From the NCBI GenBank assembly GCA_964563615.1, contig CAZLWF010000001.1:8206-72205 (forward strand): a stretch of 64,000 nt of DNA. Direction: 5' to 3'. A program made the translations under genes and the position numbers. The notes below the pieces were generated by a model. The model saw nothing but the letters and a program-made list of their open reading frames with translations. It was not told the DNA's origin and made no database searches. The stretch's first letter is position 1. Each line of letters starts with the position of its first letter. The DNA comes from an uncultured Candidatus Saccharibacteria bacterium. GTDB lineage: Bacteria; Patescibacteriota; Minisyncoccia; Phycocordibacterales; UBA9973. Below, one piece after another: positions 4,510 through 21,117 of the stretch.

Positions 4510-4537
4510 AAAAATTGCCCCACATGGGGCAATTTTT
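4510..4537. terminator. Rho-independent terminator downstream of ndk
   Basis: The sequence is aaaaATTGCCCCacatGGGGCAATtttt. Confidence 0.7.
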
Positions 4538-4550
4538 CAACTTATTTGTG

Positions 4551-5072
4551 TTAAGATTTCTTTTTTGTCTGAGTATGCTGCTCGTGCGAGACCTGATAAT
4601 CAAAAAGTTCAGCCTCACTGAACCAGTGAGCAATTTCTTGTTTTGCTTCTTCCAAATCGCCAGATGCATGGATAATATTTGGTATGCCGATCTCATTTAA
4701 GTCCGCATGTGCAAAATTCATATGCGAGTAATCTCCACGGATTGTACCAGGAAGTGCAGCCTTTGGCTCAGTTGCCCCTGCCAATTTGCGGACAAGCCCA
4801 ACCGCTTCGATGCCTTGGAAGACAAAGGCGATGACTGGACTTGCTTTCATCATGTCGACTGTTACATCAAATGCTTTCTGTCCACGACGAGAAATCATCT
4901 TCCCTATAGTTTCATAGTGATGAAAGTAGTGATCTGTGGCTGGATTGATCATTTTGACACCAACGATTTTGAGTCCAACTTTTTCAAATCTAGAAAGTAT
5001 TTCTCCGACAATACCGCGTCCGATAGCATCAGGTTTCATGATAACGAGTGTTCTTTCTTGTGTTGATTGCAT
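4551..5072 (-). CDS. ndk: Nucleoside diphosphate kinase
   Basis: ERTLVIMKPDAIGRGIVGEILSRFEK and NIIHASGD match NDK. There is a short C-terminal tail. Confidence 0.9.
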   Translation of the reverse strand: MQSTQERTLVIMKPDAIGRGIVGEILSRFEKVGLKIVGVKMINPATDHYFHHYETIGKMISRRGQKAFDVTVDMMKASPVIAFVFQGIEAVGLVRKLAGATEPKAALPGTIRGDYSHMNFAHADLNEIGIPNIIHASGDLEEAKQEIAHWFSEAELFDYQVSHEQHTQTKKKS

Positions 5073-5100
5073 TATATTTATTTTTTACTAATAAAAGTGC

Positions 5101-5742: not shown

Positions 5743-8466
5743 TTACCTGGACTGATCAAACTTCGCAAATACCGCTGCTTCTACTTCTTCCCTATCGCTG
5801 CCATATTTCAAATATGAAAGTTCTTTAAGTTTATCAACCATAGAGAAATCCGCTTTAGGAAAATCAGCCGTAACGATGTTGAATGGCTTAAGTGATGGTG
5901 CACCATTGATAATCATACTCATGTACGCATTACGGTTATCGAGTTTAGTGATGTCCTGAGCAGTAAATGTCGGTGCAAACTTGGACTCGAGAAATCCTGC
6001 ATCCTCAGGAGAGACTCTAAACACTGCCATCGAGCCAACGTTACCGAAAACTGCACCTTTGATATCTTCTGGGAGCTGTGCGATATATTGGTGTGCCATG
6101 TTAAGTGATAGACGATATTTACGCGCCTCAGAGAGAATGGAAGCGATTGCAGGCGTTGTCACGTTTTGAAACTCATCGATGTAGAGGTAGAAATCAGCTA
6201 ACGTTTTACCGTATGAATCCACCCGAGATAGTGCTGCCATTTGAAGCTTCATAACGATGAGCATGCCGATAAGGTTTGCATTAAGTTCTCCGAGTCGGCC
6301 TTTGGAAAGATTAACCAGAAGGATTTTCTTATTATCCATAATATCCCGGAAATTAAGCACAGATTTCTCTTGGAGAACAACTGGGCGCATGAATTCGTTC
6401 GATATAAAGACATCGAATTTTGACGTCACATATGGTACAAAGTTCGCAAGTCCTTGATCACCAGTCGTTGCTTCAGCGCCAGCCCAGAATTGCTTGACGA
6501 TTGGATTCTTGCAATGCGAGAGCTTCATATCACGAAATGATTTGTCTGCCAAGACACGAGTAATTTCAAGAAGAGTACTACCACTTTCTAGGTGGTCCAT
6601 AACGAGGTAGGCACTATTTTTGAAATATTGTTCGAACATCGGCCCACCGCCTGTCTTCATATCGAAAAGCTGATTGAATATGAGCATGAGGGTGTCGATC
6701 ACCATTGTCTTTTGTTCAGGGAAACGAGGATCATACTCGAGCATGTTAAGCGCCATTGGGCGCGGAATGTATGCTGGATCAAAGTAGATCACATCGTCAA
6801 TACGCTCTTTAGGAACATACGAGAGAATATCTTGCACGTCATTGCCGTGAGGATCTATGAAACAACAACCTTCACCATTTCGTATATCTTGAGCAATCAT
6901 AGATTTTAAGATACCAGTCTTACCAGTACCGGTCTGACCGATAACATAGAAATGCCGCATGCGATCTTCTCGCTTCATGTGTACTTCGGTCTTCATGCCT
7001 CGATACTCGTTATAGCCCAATAGTATGCCATCCGTACTCATGTCGACTGGTGCAGGCGCAATACCAGCCTTGGCTTCTTTTAACTGCGGATTGCCGACAC
7101 CCATTGGGAAATGAAAAACAGTTGATAACTCAGTAAAGTTAAGCGGCATCATAATACTCTCTTCATACAATCGATATGAATACGCATGGAAAAGTTCTGC
7201 CAACTTTCTATCATTTATTTTATTAAATATAAATTTGTTACTATTCGGCTCTGCAAATTGGTTGAATGCCGATTCAAGCTCAGATAAAATATTATTTGCC
7301 CTTTCTTTGGTTTCTGCAGAGGCAATAATACGAATACCGCTTGCCACAATCGTACTTTTGATTTTCTCTCCAACTTTCGTAACTGCATTATCATCGATTT
7401 TCTTTTCTTTCTCTTTTTTAGTTCCACCAAAAATCAAATCTTTAGAAGCATTGAGGAATGCTGCGCCAATATTGTTCTTATCGATAGATTCCTTAATCGT
7501 CATACCATCTTTTAGATCAGCAAGCATGGTCGTAAAGCGTTTGATAAATTTATCGCCAGCAGGTGCAATGATAAACTGTATCGCCGCTCCCTCGCCAACA
7601 CGCTTCATTTTCGTAAAGACATTCAAGATCGAATTCATCGGATCATGATCGAGCGTGTCGTGCATTTTTATTGGTAATGCTTCACTCTCCGCAAGCGAGG
7701 CAAATGCCCCCGCAGCACTACCGTTTGCATTGAAAATATTGTAATCATCAGTAATTTCTCGGATCTTGGCATCGGTATAGAAAGCAAATACTTGCTTCTC
7801 GAAAAGCGGACCTTTGCCAGCAGGTATGGCAGCATAGATAATCACCTCATCACTTGCGCTTGAGAGTGCGATTTCTATCGTGTAATACTCTTTGGTTTTA
7901 TTGGTTGTGTCGCTTGCGACAGATTGCATGCCTGCATAGAACTGCTCCATTGCACCGAGAAGTTCCTTGAAGCCACGTTCTTTGCCGGCAGCTACAGGGG
8001 GTAACGTAATCTCAAATAATGACATATTAAGTCCCTTGAAAATCGGCGTACCTTCTTTGAGTCCTGGGACAGCATGCGTTGTGATTAGATATTGTGCCAA
8101 AAAACGATGAAAGTCATCATCAATATGAGGATTATGAAATCCATTTGCCATCTCAAGTGCTACCTTTACGCCGCGCGATAAAAGTACCCCTAAAAGCTCT
8201 TCCATTTTTGTATCATGAGGTTCAGGTGCAAGCGGGAGCGCAAAACCTTCGACTTCTTTTTTTGTTACTTGAGTGGAAATAGGTAATACTTGCTCTTGCG
8301 GAATTTCTTTGTAAGAAGCGATCGCTTCTTTGGCAATACTTTCTGTGGAAGCTGGAGTTCCTTGCTCTTTTAGTTCCTGTTCACGCCTCGCAACGTGTTC
8401 TCGCAAGTAAGTTAGCTCCTCTTCAGGAGTTTGGAATTTAGGAAGTTCATTAAATGTCGGCTGCAT
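5743..8466 (-). CDS. TraD/VirD4/HerA-like P-loop ATPase with a long uncharacterised N-terminal region
   Basis: It has Walker A GQTGTGKTG and Walker B YLYIDEFQN. ARKYRLSLNMAHQ is typical of coupling-protein and DUF87-type ATPases. About 500 aa of the N-terminus is unassigned. Confidence 0.65.
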   Translation of the reverse strand: MQPTFNELPKFQTPEEELTYLREHVARREQELKEQGTPASTESIAKEAIASYKEIPQEQVLPISTQVTKKEVEGFALPLAPEPHDTKMEELLGVLLSRGVKVALEMANGFHNPHIDDDFHRFLAQYLITTHAVPGLKEGTPIFKGLNMSLFEITLPPVAAGKERGFKELLGAMEQFYAGMQSVASDTTNKTKEYYTIEIALSSASDEVIIYAAIPAGKGPLFEKQVFAFYTDAKIREITDDYNIFNANGSAAGAFASLAESEALPIKMHDTLDHDPMNSILNVFTKMKRVGEGAAIQFIIAPAGDKFIKRFTTMLADLKDGMTIKESIDKNNIGAAFLNASKDLIFGGTKKEKEKKIDDNAVTKVGEKIKSTIVASGIRIIASAETKERANNILSELESAFNQFAEPNSNKFIFNKINDRKLAELFHAYSYRLYEESIMMPLNFTELSTVFHFPMGVGNPQLKEAKAGIAPAPVDMSTDGILLGYNEYRGMKTEVHMKREDRMRHFYVIGQTGTGKTGILKSMIAQDIRNGEGCCFIDPHGNDVQDILSYVPKERIDDVIYFDPAYIPRPMALNMLEYDPRFPEQKTMVIDTLMLIFNQLFDMKTGGGPMFEQYFKNSAYLVMDHLESGSTLLEITRVLADKSFRDMKLSHCKNPIVKQFWAGAEATTGDQGLANFVPYVTSKFDVFISNEFMRPVVLQEKSVLNFRDIMDNKKILLVNLSKGRLGELNANLIGMLIVMKLQMAALSRVDSYGKTLADFYLYIDEFQNVTTPAIASILSEARKYRLSLNMAHQYIAQLPEDIKGAVFGNVGSMAVFRVSPEDAGFLESKFAPTFTAQDITKLDNRNAYMSMIINGAPSLKPFNIVTADFPKADFSMVDKLKELSYLKYGSDREEVEAAVFAKFDQSR

Positions 8467-12296: not shown

Positions 12297-12737
12297 TTAT
12301 AAAATAGTACTACCCCCTGCAGTAAGCTTTTCACGAGTTACTACTGAGACGAGGCAGTCTTTGATAGTGAGCTTCTTAGTAAGTTCGCCGTCACTTAATA
12401 TTTTTACACGAGGAGTAACACCCTTGGTCCTGGTAATAAGACCTTTGGCAAGCAAGCTGCTTGGCGTAACCACTTCGCCAGTAGTGAAATGCTTTTCAAG
12501 TACTGCAAGATTGACTGTCTTTGGCTTATACGCAAAACTTTTGAAACTATTCTTACCGCGACCGCGTCGTTTTGGAAGCTTCTTTATGATATCACGAATC
12601 ATTGGGCGAATCTTGTGCCCTGCTCGCGCTTTCTGACCTTTCGTACCTCGACCAGAAGTTTTACCACGACGACCACCTCGGCCGACAGTAATCTTTTTTG
12701 GATTTTTATTTTTGCGTTGTAGGGTATGGAATTGCAT
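12297..12737 (-). CDS. rplO: Ribosomal protein uL15
   Basis: GRGGRRGKTSGRGTKGQKARAG is the L15 signature. Confidence 0.9.
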   Translation of the reverse strand: MQFHTLQRKNKNPKKITVGRGGRRGKTSGRGTKGQKARAGHKIRPMIRDIIKKLPKRRGRGKNSFKSFAYKPKTVNLAVLEKHFTTGEVVTPSSLLAKGLITRTKGVTPRVKILSDGELTKKLTIKDCLVSVVTREKLTAGGSTIL

Positions 12738-12743
12738 ATAATT

Positions 12744-13358
12744 TTATTGAGTGAATGCTTGAGCCTCTTCAACTACAGATACACGTCGCTTCTTGGCAAT
12801 ACTACTTAATGCTTTGATTGTTGCTTGTGCATTATTGAGACCATTTTTACTTCGTGAATAAATCTTGGTTGTGACGTCTTTAAGACCAAGAAGTATGACG
12901 ATATCACGAACGGTACTGCCTGCTACGATTCCCTTGCCACGGTTTGGCATAAGCATAACGCGTGAGCTTGCGAATTTGGCAGATATGTCATATGGGATTG
13001 ATCCAGTCTTTGTCATTGAGACCGTAATCATATTTTTTCGAGCATGTTTGAGAGCTTTGGCGATAGCGAGCGCTGTATCTGATGCCTTGCCAGTACCAAA
13101 TCCTACTGAACCCTTTTTGTCCCCTATAATCATAGCAACTGAGAAACTCATACGGCGACCACCGGAGACAACACGAGTCACACGTCGTATTGAAACTATC
13201 TTCTGGTCAAATTCAGGTTTTGGTCTTGCGAAAGATCCGCCGCGACCTCCCCGACCACTACCTCCACCACCGCGAGTACCTCGTCGTGGACGATCAAACG
13301 CAGGTGCCTCAGCAGGTGTATTCTCTGGTATTTTAGTTGTTGCTTGTTCTGGTTCCAT
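12744..13358 (-). CDS. rpsE: Ribosomal protein uS5 with RGG-rich N-terminal extension
   Basis: The S5 core is IVSIRRVTRVVSGGRRMSFSVAMIIGD. About 50 extra aa containing RGGGGSGRGGRGG precede it. Confidence 0.93.
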   Translation of the reverse strand: MEPEQATTKIPENTPAEAPAFDRPRRGTRGGGGSGRGGRGGSFARPKPEFDQKIVSIRRVTRVVSGGRRMSFSVAMIIGDKKGSVGFGTGKASDTALAIAKALKHARKNMITVSMTKTGSIPYDISAKFASSRVMLMPNRGKGIVAGSTVRDIVILLGLKDVTTKIYSRSKNGLNNAQATIKALSSIAKKRRVSVVEEAQAFTQ

Positions 13359-14276: not shown

Positions 14277-14663
14277 TTACCAAATTTTACATATTGCTTC
14301 ACCGCCGACTAATTCTTTGCGTGCCTCACTGTTAGAAAGAATGCCTTTTGATGTTGAGACGACAAGAATACCGTGACCATTTTTGACAGGCTTCATTTCT
14401 TTGACTTGCATATACATTCGGCGTGATGGCTTGGAGACCCGGACAACATCAGTAATGCGCGGCTTGCCATCTTTGTAGAGGAGTTCGATTTCAAATACTG
14501 GATGATTCTTAAGTGTTTTCTCTGTAAACCCAGCAATATAACCTGCGCGCTTTAGACATTCCAAAAGGGATCGCTTCATATTTGATGCAGGAGTAAGCAC
14601 TACTTCATGTGAAGCAATACTAGCGTTCTTGATTTTTATGAGCATGTCTGCAATAGGATCCAT
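14277..14663 (-). CDS. rpsH: Ribosomal protein uS8
   Basis: DPIADMLIKIKNA is the S8 signature. Confidence 0.93.
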   Translation of the reverse strand: MDPIADMLIKIKNASIASHEVVLTPASNMKRSLLECLKRAGYIAGFTEKTLKNHPVFEIELLYKDGKPRITDVVRVSKPSRRMYMQVKEMKPVKNGHGILVVSTSKGILSNSEARKELVGGEAICKIW

Positions 14664-14688: not shown

Positions 14689-14874
14689 TTACCAAGATGA
14701 TTTGCGGATACCAGGAATCTTGCCTTCATTGGCAAGCTCACGAAAGCAAATACGACAAAGTCCGAAATCCCCCATGAAACCTCTCGTACGACCACAGCGA
14801 AAACACCGATTGACTTTGCGGGTGCTAAATTTTGGTTTTCGTAATGACCGTGCAACGGTTGATTTTTTTGCCAT
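14689..14874 (-). CDS. rpsN: Ribosomal protein uS14, zinc-binding type (61 aa)
   Basis: The sequence is [46 protein letters not shown]. The start is the ATG at 14874. Confidence 0.9.
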
Positions 14875-14998
14875 AAATAAATTGCTTATTTTCTCTGGCA
14901 ATGTCACGTGTTATTTCTTGAATTGGCACGTATGTAGTGCTTGCTCAAGGAGTAAAACGGATTAACCAAACAAAAAAGGTCCGTATGAACCTAAAGAC

Positions 14999-15027
14999 AC
15001 AATAGCAAAATAAGGTTTCGTTGTCAA
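14999..15027 (-). promoter_or_regulatory. Sigma70-like promoter TTGACA-17-TATTGT restarting transcription at rpsN
   Basis: The hexamers are the reverse complement of tgtcaa (15022-15027) and acaata (14999-15004). Confidence 0.45.
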
Positions 15028-15035
15028 ATGAGCAT

Positions 15036-15266
15036 CTAAGCTGCAATAGGCTGGTCTGATTCAGGAGGATGACGCAAGCTCGCATTTCTTTGGGCAGTGA
15101 CTTTGGCATACTCCTTATCATATGCAGCATCAATAATAGCCTGCACTTCATCGAGCATTGAAGGCGTCACTGCACGCGACGTCAATAATGCAATAGCCTT
15201 TGCTTTGTCACCTTCTGCCAAATCAGGGCTCGCTTTTATCTCATTAATGTAATCATCGAATGTCAT
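15036..15266 (-). CDS. 76-aa hypothetical protein (second gene of the cassette inserted in the spc operon)
   Basis: The sequence is MTFDDYINEIKASPDLAEGDKAKAIALLTSRAVTPSMLDEVQAIIDAAYDKEYAKV... The ATG at 15266 lies 4 nt after the upstream ORF's stop. Confidence 0.45.
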   Translation of the reverse strand: MTFDDYINEIKASPDLAEGDKAKAIALLTSRAVTPSMLDEVQAIIDAAYDKEYAKVTAQRNASLRHPPESDQPIAA

Positions 15267-15270
15267 AATA

Positions 15271-15435
15271 TTACTCGCGAGACAACAATGAAACATCTTG
15301 GCGAAGCTTATAGAGACGCTCGAGTGGAGCGTAAGATTCTGGGGAGATTTCACCGTTTGCAAGCCACGCTTCTACCTCAGTTTGCGCCGAATGTACGTCA
15401 ATTGTATCTTTCTTTTCGAAACTAAATTTTTCCAT
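15271..15435 (-). CDS. 54-aa hypothetical protein (first gene of the inserted cassette)
   Basis: The sequence is MEKFSFEKKDTIDVHSAQTEVEAWLANGEISPESYAPLERLYKLRQDVSLLSRE. The ATG at 15435 lies 6 nt after a TACAAT box. Confidence 0.45.
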   Translation of the reverse strand: MEKFSFEKKDTIDVHSAQTEVEAWLANGEISPESYAPLERLYKLRQDVSLLSRE

Positions 15436-15441
15436 AGGTAC

Positions 15442-15470
15442 ATTGTATAGATGAATCACTCATAAAGCAA
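15442..15470 (-). promoter_or_regulatory. Putative promoter TTGCTT-17-TACAAT giving a leaderless mRNA
   Basis: The -10 box is at 15447-15442 and the -35 box at 15470-15465, overlapping the terminator arm. The ATG is 6 nt downstream of the -10 box. Confidence 0.35.
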
Positions 15471-15506
15471 TAAAAAAATCTTCACGTGTGAAGATTTTTT
15501 TATTGC
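15467..15506. terminator. 40-nt near-perfect palindrome / bidirectional terminator right after rplE
   Basis: The sequence is GCAATAAAAAAATCTTCACgtGTGAAGATTTTTTTATTGC. Confidence 0.65.
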
Positions 15507-15508
15507 TT

Positions 15509-16048
15509 TTATTTTTTAAATGGGATACCGATGTGTTTGAAAAATTCTAATGCTTCATCGCGAGATTTGGCAGTCGTCACGATCGTAATCGCAAGACCGA
15601 AGACATCCTTGAGCTCTTCGTCTGCTGTCTCAGGGAAAATAGTATGTTCTTTGATAGGCATAGTGAGGTTACCGATTGAATCAACAATTTTCTGATCGAT
15701 ACCACGAAAGTCCTTGGTTCGAGGCAATGCAACATTGATAAGCTTATCGAGGAATGCCTGCATTCGTGTACCACGGAGTGTCACCATCACACCGATAGGA
15801 TCGCCTTGGCGAACCTTAAAGCTTGCAACGGATTTCTTAGCCTGCTTCGTCGAAGGTTTTTGACCTGAGATTTTACCGATTCGCTCCATGATAAAGGTAT
15901 TGCGATTCTTATCGCGTTTGATACCACTACCTGTGCCTGAAGCAATAATAATCTTTGTGACCTTAGGAGATGACATCACATTGGTGTAGCCAAATTGCTT
16001 TTTCATGACATCGTACGCTTTTTCAGTTTTTTGTTTGACAGTTTCCAT
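15509..16048 (-). CDS. rplE: Ribosomal protein uL5
   Basis: The L5 core is present (FGYTNVMSSPKVTKIIIASGTG, MQAFLDKLINVALPRTKDFRG). Confidence 0.93.
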   Translation of the reverse strand: METVKQKTEKAYDVMKKQFGYTNVMSSPKVTKIIIASGTGSGIKRDKNRNTFIMERIGKISGQKPSTKQAKKSVASFKVRQGDPIGVMVTLRGTRMQAFLDKLINVALPRTKDFRGIDQKIVDSIGNLTMPIKEHTIFPETADEELKDVFGLAITIVTTAKSRDEALEFFKHIGIPFKK

Positions 16049-19069: not shown

Positions 19070-19097
19070 ATACTAACAAATTGCTGTACAAAGTCAA
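19070..19097 (-). promoter_or_regulatory. Putative promoter TTGACT-16-TAGTAT restarting transcription at rpsS
   Basis: The hexamers are the reverse complement of agtcaa (19092-19097) and atacta (19070-19075). Confidence 0.35.
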
Positions 19098-19132
19098 ATC
19101 CTACAAGAGTAAGATCTACATAGGCAAAATAA

Positions 19133-19158
19133 AAACCCAGGGATAATCTCCTGGGTTT
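19133..19158 (-). terminator. Rho-independent terminator after the 456-aa gene
   Basis: The stem is AAACCCAGG...CCTGGGTTT. On the minus strand it is followed by TTTTTATTTT. Confidence 0.65.
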
Positions 19159-19174
19159 ACTGCAATTGTTTTTA

Positions 19175-20545
19175 TTAAGCAGTTACTGTTTCTTCTTTTT
19201 CCACCGGCTGTGTCAAATCATTTTCTGCACTTACAATTTCACTACCATTAGTATTTGCAAGCGATTCCTGCTGTGAGGAATCAGATAGAGTTATCTGTCC
19301 GGAAGTAGACTCCTCAATTCCATTACCGCCATTTTTTTTCACCTTCCTGCGTACTGATTTATTGTTTTCAGGTTTTGTCATTTTAGTACTGCCGGACGTT
19401 TCGGCTACAGATTTTTCTATGTCGATAAATTCAGAAAAGTCTTTCTTTCTCAAAATACTGAGATTTTTTGCCACGTCATAGGCAGTGGGTTCATCACCTT
19501 TTTTTATTAATTCAATTGAATTTAACAAGCACGGGTAGAATTCCACTTTCAGATCTTCAACACTGTCTACTGAAAGCAGTTTGCGACTTAAAACGCTGAC
19601 CGCAGAATCAACAAGTGTTTTTACTTTCTTTATTGATTCCTCTGTCTCCTGTTCATTTGTCGGATGTTCAGCGCGCAATCTGCCAAGTTCTTCTATGGTA
19701 GCATTAATAGAGTTAGTAATTTCCTTTATTCCTTGGCATGAAATTACTTTCACGCGGTTCCCAAGGGCCAGCCTCACCTGATCCATGCAATTATAGGGAT
19801 ATGTATTCCTTAATTTCCTTTCCATGATTTCAATCTCAGGATAGGTAAAAATTCCCTCCAAAGCATTTTCCAAAAAGCCTAGTGCAGTGTTTTGAACATC
19901 TATAGCTTTAGCATCATACCCGGGAGACATCTGCGGCAAAACAAATCCTTCAAATGTATCCATGATGATTTTAAAGCCATTCTCATTCAACCCAGAGAAA
20001 AATTCCGGCAATAACGCTTCATACATTTTTGAATACATTCCATTAGCTCTCTTCTTATGGTCTTCATCAGAGAATTTTATCTGCGGAATTTTCTTATATG
20101 CTGTATTCACAGAATAAAGATCATTCGCATCTTGCGGTAAAATAGCACTGACGGGCAGCAACTCTTGCTCAGGTGCAACATAAACAAAATTTGCATCTGT
20201 AGTTTCGTCTACTGACTCTTTTACTGACTCTTTTTTATTTTCATCTTCAGGTAGAGTCACAGGAAGTTCTTCTTTTAATGTTTTTTCTTTTGAAGCACTA
20301 ACTGGATGCACTCTGGGATCATTAGTGGCCACAATAACCGCTTTCCCGTTTTCAAATTTTGATCTGTTCGTATTATCCTCGATTGGATCCTTCAGGCCAA
20401 TTGTTTTATCAGGTTTAGTGTTTCTAAATTTGGCAAAAATCTTTTTGCGATTGTAAATTACGATCCCTAAAAGAAGCAATCCTCCGAGTATCCATTTCCC
20501 GAATGGTATCTCCAATAGATTAGTGAAAATGTTCAAGTACAGCAT
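19175..20545 (-). CDS. Hypothetical single-pass membrane protein (456 aa) inserted in the S10 operon
   Basis: An N-terminal TM segment ([14 protein letters not shown]) is followed by an acidic linker and a helical region. I recognise no motif. Confidence 0.6.
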
Positions 20546-20610
20546 AGCTTATTTGTTTTGTTTTTGGTTTTAAATGTTCAATTTGTCGACACTATACCAT
20601 AACTACAGAA

Positions 20611-20635
20611 AAATGCAAGGATTTCTCTTGCATTT
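20611..20635 (-). terminator. Rho-independent terminator after dgkA
   Basis: AAATGCAAG...CTTGCATTT is followed on the minus strand by a TTTTT run. Confidence 0.6.
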
Positions 20636-20670
20636 GCGTATATCTAAAAAAGCCCAAACTATTAGTCTTT

Positions 20671-21066
20671 TTATTTAAAACACCAGAGTATTTTAGGGAG
20701 AAATATGATAAGGCCGATGAGAAGTGCAGCGAGCGAGGTGATGAGCACAGCGCCAGCAGCTATATCTTTGGTGTCACGGGCTTTGGGGTTAAATTCTGGA
20801 CTCGTCAGGTTCATATCGATCTCTAATGCTGTGTTAAAGGCTTCAGCGACAAAGACGATACTGACAGCTAGGATTATAAACAACCATTCGATAGACGAGA
20901 TAGAGAAAAACACACCAAGTATTACGACAGCAATAAGTGCCACCATATGCAACCAAGCATTGTGTTCATTTTTTATAAAAATCAGTAATCCTCGACACGC
21001 ATGCCGCATACTTCGAATACGCCCAGAGATAGTAAAAGCTTCTTTATCTTTTTCGTATGATTCCAT
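20671..21066 (-). CDS. dgkA: Diacylglycerol/undecaprenol kinase family membrane protein
   Basis: It has the prokaryotic DAGK motifs EAFNTALEIDMNL and KDIAAGAVLI, and three TM helices. Confidence 0.8.
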   Translation of the reverse strand: MESYEKDKEAFTISGRIRSMRHACRGLLIFIKNEHNAWLHMVALIAVVILGVFFSISSIEWLFIILAVSIVFVAEAFNTALEIDMNLTSPEFNPKARDTKDIAAGAVLITSLAALLIGLIIFLPKILWCFK

Positions 21067-21117
21067 ATCATAATCTTACCAAATGCAAAACAACTCCGCG
21101 AGGAGTTGTTTTTAGAT

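Follow-up and report, generated by a model that had tools for sequence, protein, structure and literature searches.

A clade-wide break between rplE and rpsN in the spc cluster of Paceibacteria-type candidate phyla radiation bacteria, with exchangeable cargo and a structured rpsN leader

The subject of this report is the interval between two ribosomal protein genes, rplE and rpsN, in the spc cluster of an uncultured Candidatus Saccharibacteria bacterium. The DNA analysed, referred to below as the window, is a stretch of 64,000 nucleotides from contig CAZLWF010000001.1 (assembly GCA_964563615.1), and all coordinates are positions in it unless a relative is named. Few gene arrangements in bacteria are as rigid as the spc cluster. 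In the window, rplE (uL5; 15509..16048, minus strand; Pfam Ribosomal_L5 and L5_C, E = 3e-29) is the last gene of the upstream ribosomal unit, and the downstream unit opens at 14874 with rpsN (14689..14874, minus strand; Pfam S14, E = 4e-22), which encodes a zinc-binding uS14 of type Z with 61 amino acids. The second gene of this rpsN-rpsH-rplF... unit, rpsH, starts at 14663 and encodes uS8 (14277..14663, minus strand; Pfam Ribosomal_S8 in the identical loci), the protein proposed below as a candidate regulator. Between the two units lie 634 nt (14875..15508). An initial annotation of this DNA, made from the letters alone, described a gap of about 630 bp holding four elements, and all four are present, each on the minus strand. 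Read in that direction, the order is the rplE stop codon, a palindrome, a putative promoter (P1), ORF1, the tetranucleotide TATT, ORF2, 8 nt, a second putative promoter (P2), a small hairpin with a U-run, about 90 nt and the rpsN ATG. What the annotation missed is a structured leader upstream of rpsN, which is the most conserved element of the interval.

The two open reading frames (ORFs) are arranged as the annotation had them, in tandem and 4 nt apart, and they lie in different frames. ORF1 (15271..15435, minus strand) encodes an acidic orphan protein of 54 aa, predicted to form two helices, and ORF2 (15036..15266, minus strand) encodes an acidic three-helix protein of 76 aa, a shortened member of a family of 125-aa proteins found at this junction. 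Their coding character was judged from five strains with up to 6% nucleotide divergence: the window itself, L013 (98.2% identical to it), L016 (96.2%), L008 (93.9%) and L024 (93.7%), the last being CP064958.1, the 808-kb genome of a Candidatus Nomurabacteria bacterium; the window DNA also occurs in other public assemblies (L009-L012 and L025). Against L008, ORF2 has 24 substitutions, distributed 1/0/23 over the three codon positions, and ORF1 has 15 (2/2/11). The ORF2 protein is identical in all 5 strains across 16-24 synonymous changes, which also extend over its novel tail; ORF1 keeps its length and frame in the 5 strains, with 9 variable positions. By the Nei-Gojobori method against L024, synonymous (dS) and nonsynonymous (dN) divergence are 0.41 and 0 for ORF2 (dN/dS 0) and 0.36 and 0.049 for ORF1 (dN/dS 0.135), next to dS 0.10-0.43, dN 0-0.02 and dN/dS 0-0.06 for the neighbouring ribosomal protein genes. 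The dN/dS of rplE is likewise 0; ORF2 is as constrained as rplE. Both frames thereby carry the signature of real genes under purifying selection, and, as judged by comparative sequence, the claim is supported that rplE and rpsN are kept apart by two genuine genes for small proteins that have transcription signals of their own. The refuting condition set by the annotation itself, a lack of coding conservation, does not hold; the idea of a non-coding regulatory spacer is refuted, as is that of decaying remnants, because the substitution pattern, with its changes mostly in third positions, is that of purifying selection. With constraint like that of the ribosomal proteins, ORF2 is well placed to account for a function still missing in organisms not yet grown alone. 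A separate history for the ORF1-ORF2 cassette (third-position divergence of about 30% versus 3% in rpsN) was considered and withdrawn: rpsH, rplF, rplN and rplO have dS values of 0.26-0.43, similar to those of the cassette, and it is rpsN and its leader that are the unusually conserved part.

Neither protein belongs to a family that we could recognise, in agreement with the annotation. Both are acidic and hydrophilic, with pI values of 4.9 and 4.6, and AlphaFold2 models ORF1 as two helices (predicted local distance difference test, pLDDT, 75) and ORF2 as three helices with a disordered tail (pLDDT 73). Nothing above noise was found for either in Pfam, PADLOC, PHROGs or NCBIfam, no sequence-profile match to the PDB was significant, and Foldseek, run on PDB structures, returned nothing at E < 1. 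A word-indexed search of 5.8 billion proteins gave only the queries themselves and near-identical sequences, which for ORF1 meant itself and one relative at 93% identity, and tblastn of 50,697 phage and 72,556 plasmid records found no copies of ORF1 or ORF2. Matches below threshold, namely DUF2267 (best E = 0.005), cytochrome b562, bS21m (PDB, E = 0.024) and HlyD, were not used.

More sensitive comparison placed ORF2 in a family. A HMMER search of 1.84 billion representatives returned one further protein, P0004, of 125 aa and 60% identical over ORF2 residues 1-62 (E = 8.5e-13), and a profile search added P0005-P0009, all of 125 aa; over the same residues ORF2 is 58-65% identical to P0004-P0009, with E about 1e-22. 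The N-terminal domain of the family, MT[LF]D[DE]YINEIK...LDEVQA[LI]ID, is present in ORF2, and so are the position between rplE and rpsN and the tight coupling, 2-4 nt, to a gene upstream. The C-terminal coiled-coil half (residues ~65-125) is absent from ORF2; compared with L014, L020 and L023, about 190 nt are gone from the window, comprising that half and the terminator that follows it. The layout in the family is rplE, a helical protein of 339-456 aa that belongs to no family, 2-3 nt, the 125-aa gene and rpsN, and it is found on every contig that holds both flanks. The large protein and the 125-aa homologue occupy the slot in L014, L017, L018-23 and L027, the shorter contigs being fragments consistent with the layout; one contig with this layout is the complete 705-kb genome CP064973.1, and L014 and L017 have one additional gene before rpsN. 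All the ORF2 copies found sit at the rplE|rpsN junction of close relatives; four sister lineages have the family in this slot, and although uL5 of the lineages with it is only about 75% identical, the family is constantly there between rplE and rpsN. The large partner (L014 3873..4997, L020 3979..4998, L021 89..1459 and L027 904..2274) is all-helical, variable at the N-terminus and strongly conserved over about 250 aa at the C-terminal end; it has no Pfam or NCBIfam match and by its sequence constitutes a second uncharacterised clade-specific family.

The window thus carries a shrunken version of a conserved two-gene module. ORF1 was considered as a homologue of the large partner and rejected: neither BLASTP (E = 1.2) nor hhalign (probability 1.2%) was significant, Smith-Waterman scores against shuffles gave p = 0.14 (0.05 for the N-terminal extension), and blastn and blastx found nothing. 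ORF2 keeps both the family-invariant domain and the tight coupling to its upstream gene, and we therefore infer that this domain docks onto the product of that gene; ORF1 and ORF2 most likely form a heteromeric complex. The shrinkage could also be read as decay, with ORF1 and ORF2 as non-functional leftovers of the larger module of the relatives. The terminator of the module and the second half of the 125-aa protein are indeed gone from the window, and where the relatives have the 339-456-aa partner there is a 54-aa ORF for which no homology to it could be detected. However, pseudogene remnants would give disrupted frames and dN/dS near 1, and what is seen is an ORF2 with exclusively synonymous change between strains, novel tail included, and an ORF1 whose frame and length are kept at the low dN/dS given above. 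We regard decay as scarcely credible.

The annotation described the cassette as inserted, and here the relatives tell otherwise. Seven species-representative genomes were retrieved by uL5 (49-74% identical; labelled Paceibacterota, Nomurabacteria, Kaiserbacteria and "Saccharibacteria"), and the relatives recovered in total represent about 12 lineages (uL5 49-75% identical). In all 6 of the 7 genomes (L001-L007) whose contig reaches rpsN, rplE and rpsN lie 0.6-2.9 kb apart; the contig of L003 ends inside the cargo. The break is common to every relative recovered, and the cargo of the slot is unrelated from genome to genome: L002 has a cytidylate-kinase-like gene on the opposite strand, L001, L003, L005 and L007 have small membrane or secreted proteins, and the minus strand of L004 carries at 4537..5073 a pair made up of a YafQ/ParE-like toxin (E = 1e-6, narrowly short of the Pfam cut-off) and a RelB-like antitoxin (E = 1e-3), beside a protein that has a peptidoglycan-binding domain. 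The cargo of L005 (4968..6384) is a set of three small paralogues, hydrophobic in their N-terminal segments and with the motif C..DFG.GVYKF.C in common, which looks like a local tandem duplication. Since the whole group has the slot, ORF1 and ORF2 were not dropped into an intact operon, and with the ORF2 family already in the slot of the sister lineages, both the break and ORF2 are, on this comparative evidence, to be taken as inherited rather than as a recent insertion.

The L004 pair bears directly on the proposal of the annotation that the two small genes are a toxin-antitoxin or addiction-type cassette, in which one product is toxic to the cell and its partner counteracts it. The layout invites the idea, for as in type II systems such as RelBE and YafQ-DinJ there are two short adjacent genes with a tight spacer and their own promoter, and the probable example in L004 shows that such modules can land in this very junction. 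No recognised toxin fold or family (RelE/ParE, MazF, PIN, HipA or Doc) was found in Pfam, PADLOC, NCBIfam or PHROGs, there was no structural match, and no DNA-binding domain of the antitoxin kinds (RHH, HTH, AbrB or Phd/YefM) was detected; unlike a type II pair, both proteins are acidic helical bundles. The locus is single, fixed and vertically inherited, not patchy, mobile or multi-copy, and phage and plasmid copies are lacking in the records searched. ORF2 is held to the constraint of a ribosomal protein, and its homologues are of another size, 125 aa, and paired with proteins of 339-456 aa. A toxin-antitoxin function is very improbable, and the lesson for annotation is that small ORFs in ribosomal clusters are not to be called toxin-antitoxin on layout alone.

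A second proposal makes ORF1, ORF2 and the 125-aa family clade-specific proteins associated with the ribosome or with translation, kept in the cluster for co-expression. Its attraction is that the position of the ORF2 family is constant across lineages with uL5 only about 75% identical, that the constraint is as for ribosomal proteins and the promoter of the common constitutive type, and that the group is without L30, so that its ribosome composition is already unusual. Nevertheless, vertical inheritance alone explains the position, the slots of other relatives hold unrelated genes, and both products are acidic and, with a separate promoter and terminator, would not be co-transcribed with the ribosomal genes. 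Similarity to ribosomal or ribosome-binding proteins was not found, the bS21m hit mentioned above being the best PDB sequence match and not significant. We give this proposal little weight.

The left boundary of the slot is the palindrome. The annotation was right in placing a palindromic terminator immediately after rplE, but it is not a near-perfect element of 40 nt: it occupies 46 nt (15464..15509, minus strand), consists of two perfect 22-nt arms around a 2-nt centre, and has the final A of the rplE stop as its first base. The RNA folds at -24.1 kcal/mol (z = -8.5 versus shuffles), and its A-tract, stem and U-tract are in the arrangement of an intrinsic terminator, with a 22-bp stem whose inner part, AUCUUCAC/GUGAAGAU, is followed by U7AUUGCUUU. 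The two arms show no difference among 4 strains and the centre varies, being AC in the window (15486..15487) and, at the homologous positions, GT in L013, GT in L016 and GA in L024, which fits selection on the stem only. Flip-flop inversion of the palindrome was considered; the AC/GT/GA centres amount to ordinary loop variation, and inversion is not demonstrated. The sister lineages have other solutions at the same place: in L020 a different palindrome with 22-bp arms stands directly after rplE, and in L014 a classical GC-rich terminator. The post-rplE palindrome is predicted to be a strong intrinsic terminator that ends the rpsS...rplE unit.

Transcription of the cargo would start at P1 (15442..15470, minus strand), where TTGCTT (15470..15465), 17 nt and TACAAT (15447..15442) are followed by GTACCT and the ORF1 ATG at 15435, just as the annotation had read it. 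Only the -10 box of P1 is good, at 5/6 matches; the -35 box has 3/6, and the promoter scan did not list P1 owing to this weak -35. The DNA is AT-rich, and promoter-like hexamers are no commoner in it than in shuffled sequence (24 found versus 25.1 expected); the weight of these sites comes from conservation. At P1, neither the -10 box nor GTACCTATG changes in 5 strains, and TACAAT lies 6-7 nt before the first cargo ATG also in L020 and L014, though the first genes there differ. Only 6 nt separate the -10 box from the ORF1 ATG, which has no Shine-Dalgarno sequence. The window as a whole has almost no Shine-Dalgarno sequences, and for at least 12 first genes in it the ATG is preceded, at a distance of 6-8 nt, by a -10-like hexamer (minus-strand examples at 8466, 41892, 44186, 3730, 48522 and 10962); in this genome, expression from leaderless mRNAs looks common. 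Because the geometry at ORF1 is the same as in these many first genes, and the window is nearly without Shine-Dalgarno sequences, a leaderless ORF1-ORF2 mRNA is plausible.

P2 (14999..15027, minus strand) is the candidate promoter of the rpsN-rpsH-rplF... unit, and it has a firmer footing. The TTGACA-17-TATTGT reported by the annotation is present, with an extended TG in addition, (TG)TATTGT, and matches 10/12 positions. P2 is unchanged in all 5 strains, and TTGACA-17-TAGTAT is found at the homologous place in 8 other lineages (L001, L002, L014, L017 and L020-L023), so that, with a spacing within 16-18 nt and conservation at orthologous positions, it has the features of a sigma-70-type promoter. 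At about +1 of the rpsN transcript there is a small hairpin (14977..14992, minus strand), and in the minimum free energy fold the U-run after it is paired as the basal helix of the leader. This hairpin with its T-run (14992..14967) was considered as a terminator or attenuator and rejected: it is too weak (-6.3 kcal/mol, z = -1.2, not significant alone), and although small hairpins stand at the same place after P2 in relatives, the combination of hairpin and U-run is not conserved there.

The structured rpsN leader itself (14892..14970, minus strand) lies 17-96 nt upstream of the rpsN ATG, a hairpin of about 80 nt within a 5′ untranslated region (UTR) of about 120 nt. Nine leader sequences (alignment A4) fold in RNAalifold into one long hairpin, in which a 3x3 internal loop is conserved and the core resembles the S8 site. 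Pairing holds in 94.7% of cells, 16/26 pairs have compensatory changes, and 0/500 shuffles reach the observed values; when the partner strand is slid by 1-3 columns, 28-50% of cells are paired and at most 5 compensatory pairs are left. A covariance model built on it (R1) matches a locus only once, each time directly before rpsN, and in the window scores 80.5 bits at 14892..14970, the sole site in 64 kb. Promoter and leader are conserved together in 9 lineages. Between the window and L024 the stretch from the -35 box to the rpsN ATG (~153 nt) has 2 substitutions and 1 indel, next to a nearby synonymous divergence of 0.3-0.4. By these comparative measures the leader is shown to be conserved and structured. 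In Rfam 15 the window has no match at gathering thresholds, and none of the 4227 models falls on the leader even at E <= 10; the leader pattern has 0 matches in viral contigs. The 90% cluster of rpsN has a single member and supplied no further leaders. The conservation does not stop at the ATG: rpsN has dS 0.10 between strains versus 0.26-0.43 for its neighbours, which suggests extra constraint at the nucleotide level. A hairpin with a T-run on the opposite strand, at 14845..14861 within rpsN, is present in L020 too.

The base of the leader resembles the S8-binding site of 16S rRNA. It reads 5′-R8 R9 U10 C11 ... G66 A67 (Y68 A69) Y70 Y71-3′, and E. coli helix 21, read from its sequence, is A596 G597 U598 C599 ... 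G639 A640 (U641 A642) C643 U644. The S8 site has been described as a helix interrupted by seven conserved nucleotides, with a (G597-C643)-U641 triple, an invariant A642 and an A595-(A596-U644) triple (PMC4176348). The equivalents of U598-A640, C599-G639 and A642, that is, U10-A67, C11-G66 and A69, are invariant in 9/9 leaders; Y68 is bulged, and the pairs 8-71 and 9-70, equivalent to 596-644 and 597-643, are always purine-pyrimidine and covary between A-U and G-C. L002 reads GGU/AUACC, which equals E. coli at 597-643. The leader moreover stands in a transcript that encodes S8. In E. coli, S8 represses this same gene set from a site that takes in the rplE start and occurs in Gammaproteobacteria only (PMC3616713). 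Because the leader core resembles helix 21, and S8 is both the product of the second gene of the unit and a known E. coli repressor, we propose S8 feedback at rpsN; among the possible ligands, the chance that it is S8 is about even.

The comparison with the E. coli spc operator is instructive in both directions. Common to the two are a helix with an asymmetric internal loop like that of helix 21 (U-A, a bulged YA with the invariant A, two R-Y pairs) and a place in the mRNA of the cluster that encodes S8, with feedback expected on rpsN, rpsH and the downstream genes. They differ in that the E. coli site is at the rplE start, whereas the window element sits in a separate 5′ UTR of rpsN behind its own promoter, which leaves rplE outside the regulated unit; the window hairpin is also much longer, has an extra invariant internal loop, and has neither a sequence-level match nor one in Rfam. 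Should the ligand be S8, a single mode of protein-RNA recognition would have been recruited independently at rpsN rather than at rplE. To our knowledge, no such ribosomal protein regulators have been described in this phylum, and the leader offers a new case of a ribosomal protein operator that can be put to the test. It shares with the ribosomal leader candidates of Eckert and Weinberg 2020 (PMC7247131) and with the r-leaders of Rfam a covarying structure before a ribosomal operon, restriction to a clade and presumed mimicry of rRNA. That study lists 20 ribosomal leader candidates, with no S14/rpsN leader among them and no mention of Parcubacteria or candidate phyla (PMC7247131).

Taking these results together, the reading that we favour, with moderate confidence, is an inherited break of the spc operon in a Paceibacteria/Nomurabacteria-type lineage of the candidate phyla radiation (CPR), used as a slot for cargo, with a terminator on its left side and a promoter and a candidate S8-type leader on its right. 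The palindromic terminator would end rpsS...rplE transcription at the left edge. The cargo would be a bicistronic ORF1-ORF2 operon read from P1, its mRNA probably leaderless, in which ORF2, 4 nt after ORF1, is probably coupled to it in translation, and the soluble acidic helical products would act as a complex. At the right edge, the sigma-70-type P2 would produce the rpsN 5′ UTR of about 120 nt whose hairpin appears to imitate the S8 site of helix 21; excess S8 would bind it and repress translation of rpsN and the coupled genes, a role like that of the E. coli S8 operator at the rplE start. A more ambitious version, in which the junction of Paceibacteria-type CPR bacteria is a stable regulated slot within the best conserved of all bacterial gene clusters, closed on the right by an undescribed S8-responsive leader, and the ORF2 family, its long-standing occupant and here accompanied by ORF1, is a clade-specific one working with the ribosome or the translation apparatus of these reduced organisms, we consider unlikely.

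Several observations weigh against the favoured reading. The break was sampled in the relatives that could be retrieved rather than in CPR bacteria at large, the nine leaders represent about 6 independent lineages, and R1 does not match L004-L007, which have a different upstream element. The promoters, the efficiency of the terminator and the leaderless start are all deduced from sequence. The complex of ORF1 and ORF2 is conjectural, and no relationship between ORF1 and the large protein of the relatives could be detected. As for S8, the helix 21 used for reference is that of E. coli and not of the host's own 16S, the A595 equivalent is not conserved, and the 597-643 equivalent is A-U rather than G-C in most leaders. 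Moreover, the strongest conservation, CUCCUU ... AAG-AA around the 3x3 loop, lies outside the minimal S8 site, and another ligand is possible. A leader that is real but is not an S8 operator deserves consideration: it could respond to another protein of the unit (S14, L6, L18, S5 or L15) or to another factor, or serve mRNA stability or attenuation. The invariant nucleotides outside the site and the variable A595 both speak for this, as does the hairpin with U-run behind the promoter in the window lineage, though that feature is weak and not conserved in relatives. On the other side, the helix, the 2-nt YA bulge, the R-Y geometry and the invariant U-A, C-G and A reproduce the helix 21 core, and S8 is known to regulate this gene set in E. 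coli (PMC3616713). We judge a leader of this other kind to be a possibility of some substance, if a doubtful one.

The favoured reading of an inherited, regulated slot also differs from what has been published on foreign genes between ribosomal genes or operons. The likeness is that foreign genes came to lie there and were then inherited by a clade. The published cases considered here, such as tusDCB and bfd-bfr, lie between operons, whereas the window break is inside the spc operon, between rplE and rpsN; unlike those insertions, the cargo here varies by lineage, and the break has its own terminator, promoter and regulatory leader. What is new is thus a clade-wide break of the spc operon with exchangeable cargo, plus an undescribed leader. 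A routine break at one point, with terminator, promoter, leader and changing cargo, bears on how clusters are remodelled in streamlined CPR genomes.

Three further observations concern the neighbourhood of these elements. Some more distant relatives that R1 does not match share an element of their own: in L004, L006 and L007, about 160-300 nt upstream of rpsN, TTGAC(T/A)-17-TATATT is followed by GCCTCGTAGGGGGC and TTTGTTTTT, and L006 and L007 have common downstream blocks such as CUGUAA..GGAUGCAAG; the element in these three genomes may be a second type of rpsN leader. Elsewhere in the ribosomal cluster of the window (12297..13358), rplO follows rpsE after 6 nt with no rpmD (L30) gene between them, an absence that is usual for CPR bacteria. 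Finally, a second ribosomal-cluster break is found between rplB and rpsS (19070..21112, minus strand). It holds a diacylglycerol-kinase-like gene (dagK; 20671..21066, minus strand; PF01219, E = 3e-30) and a 456-aa ORF of no family (19175..20545, minus strand), which was considered as the absent large partner of ORF2 and rejected. This cargo is flanked on the minus strand by a palindromic terminator (21087..21112), a second terminator (19158..19133) and a promoter, TTGACT-16-TAGTAT (19097..19070).

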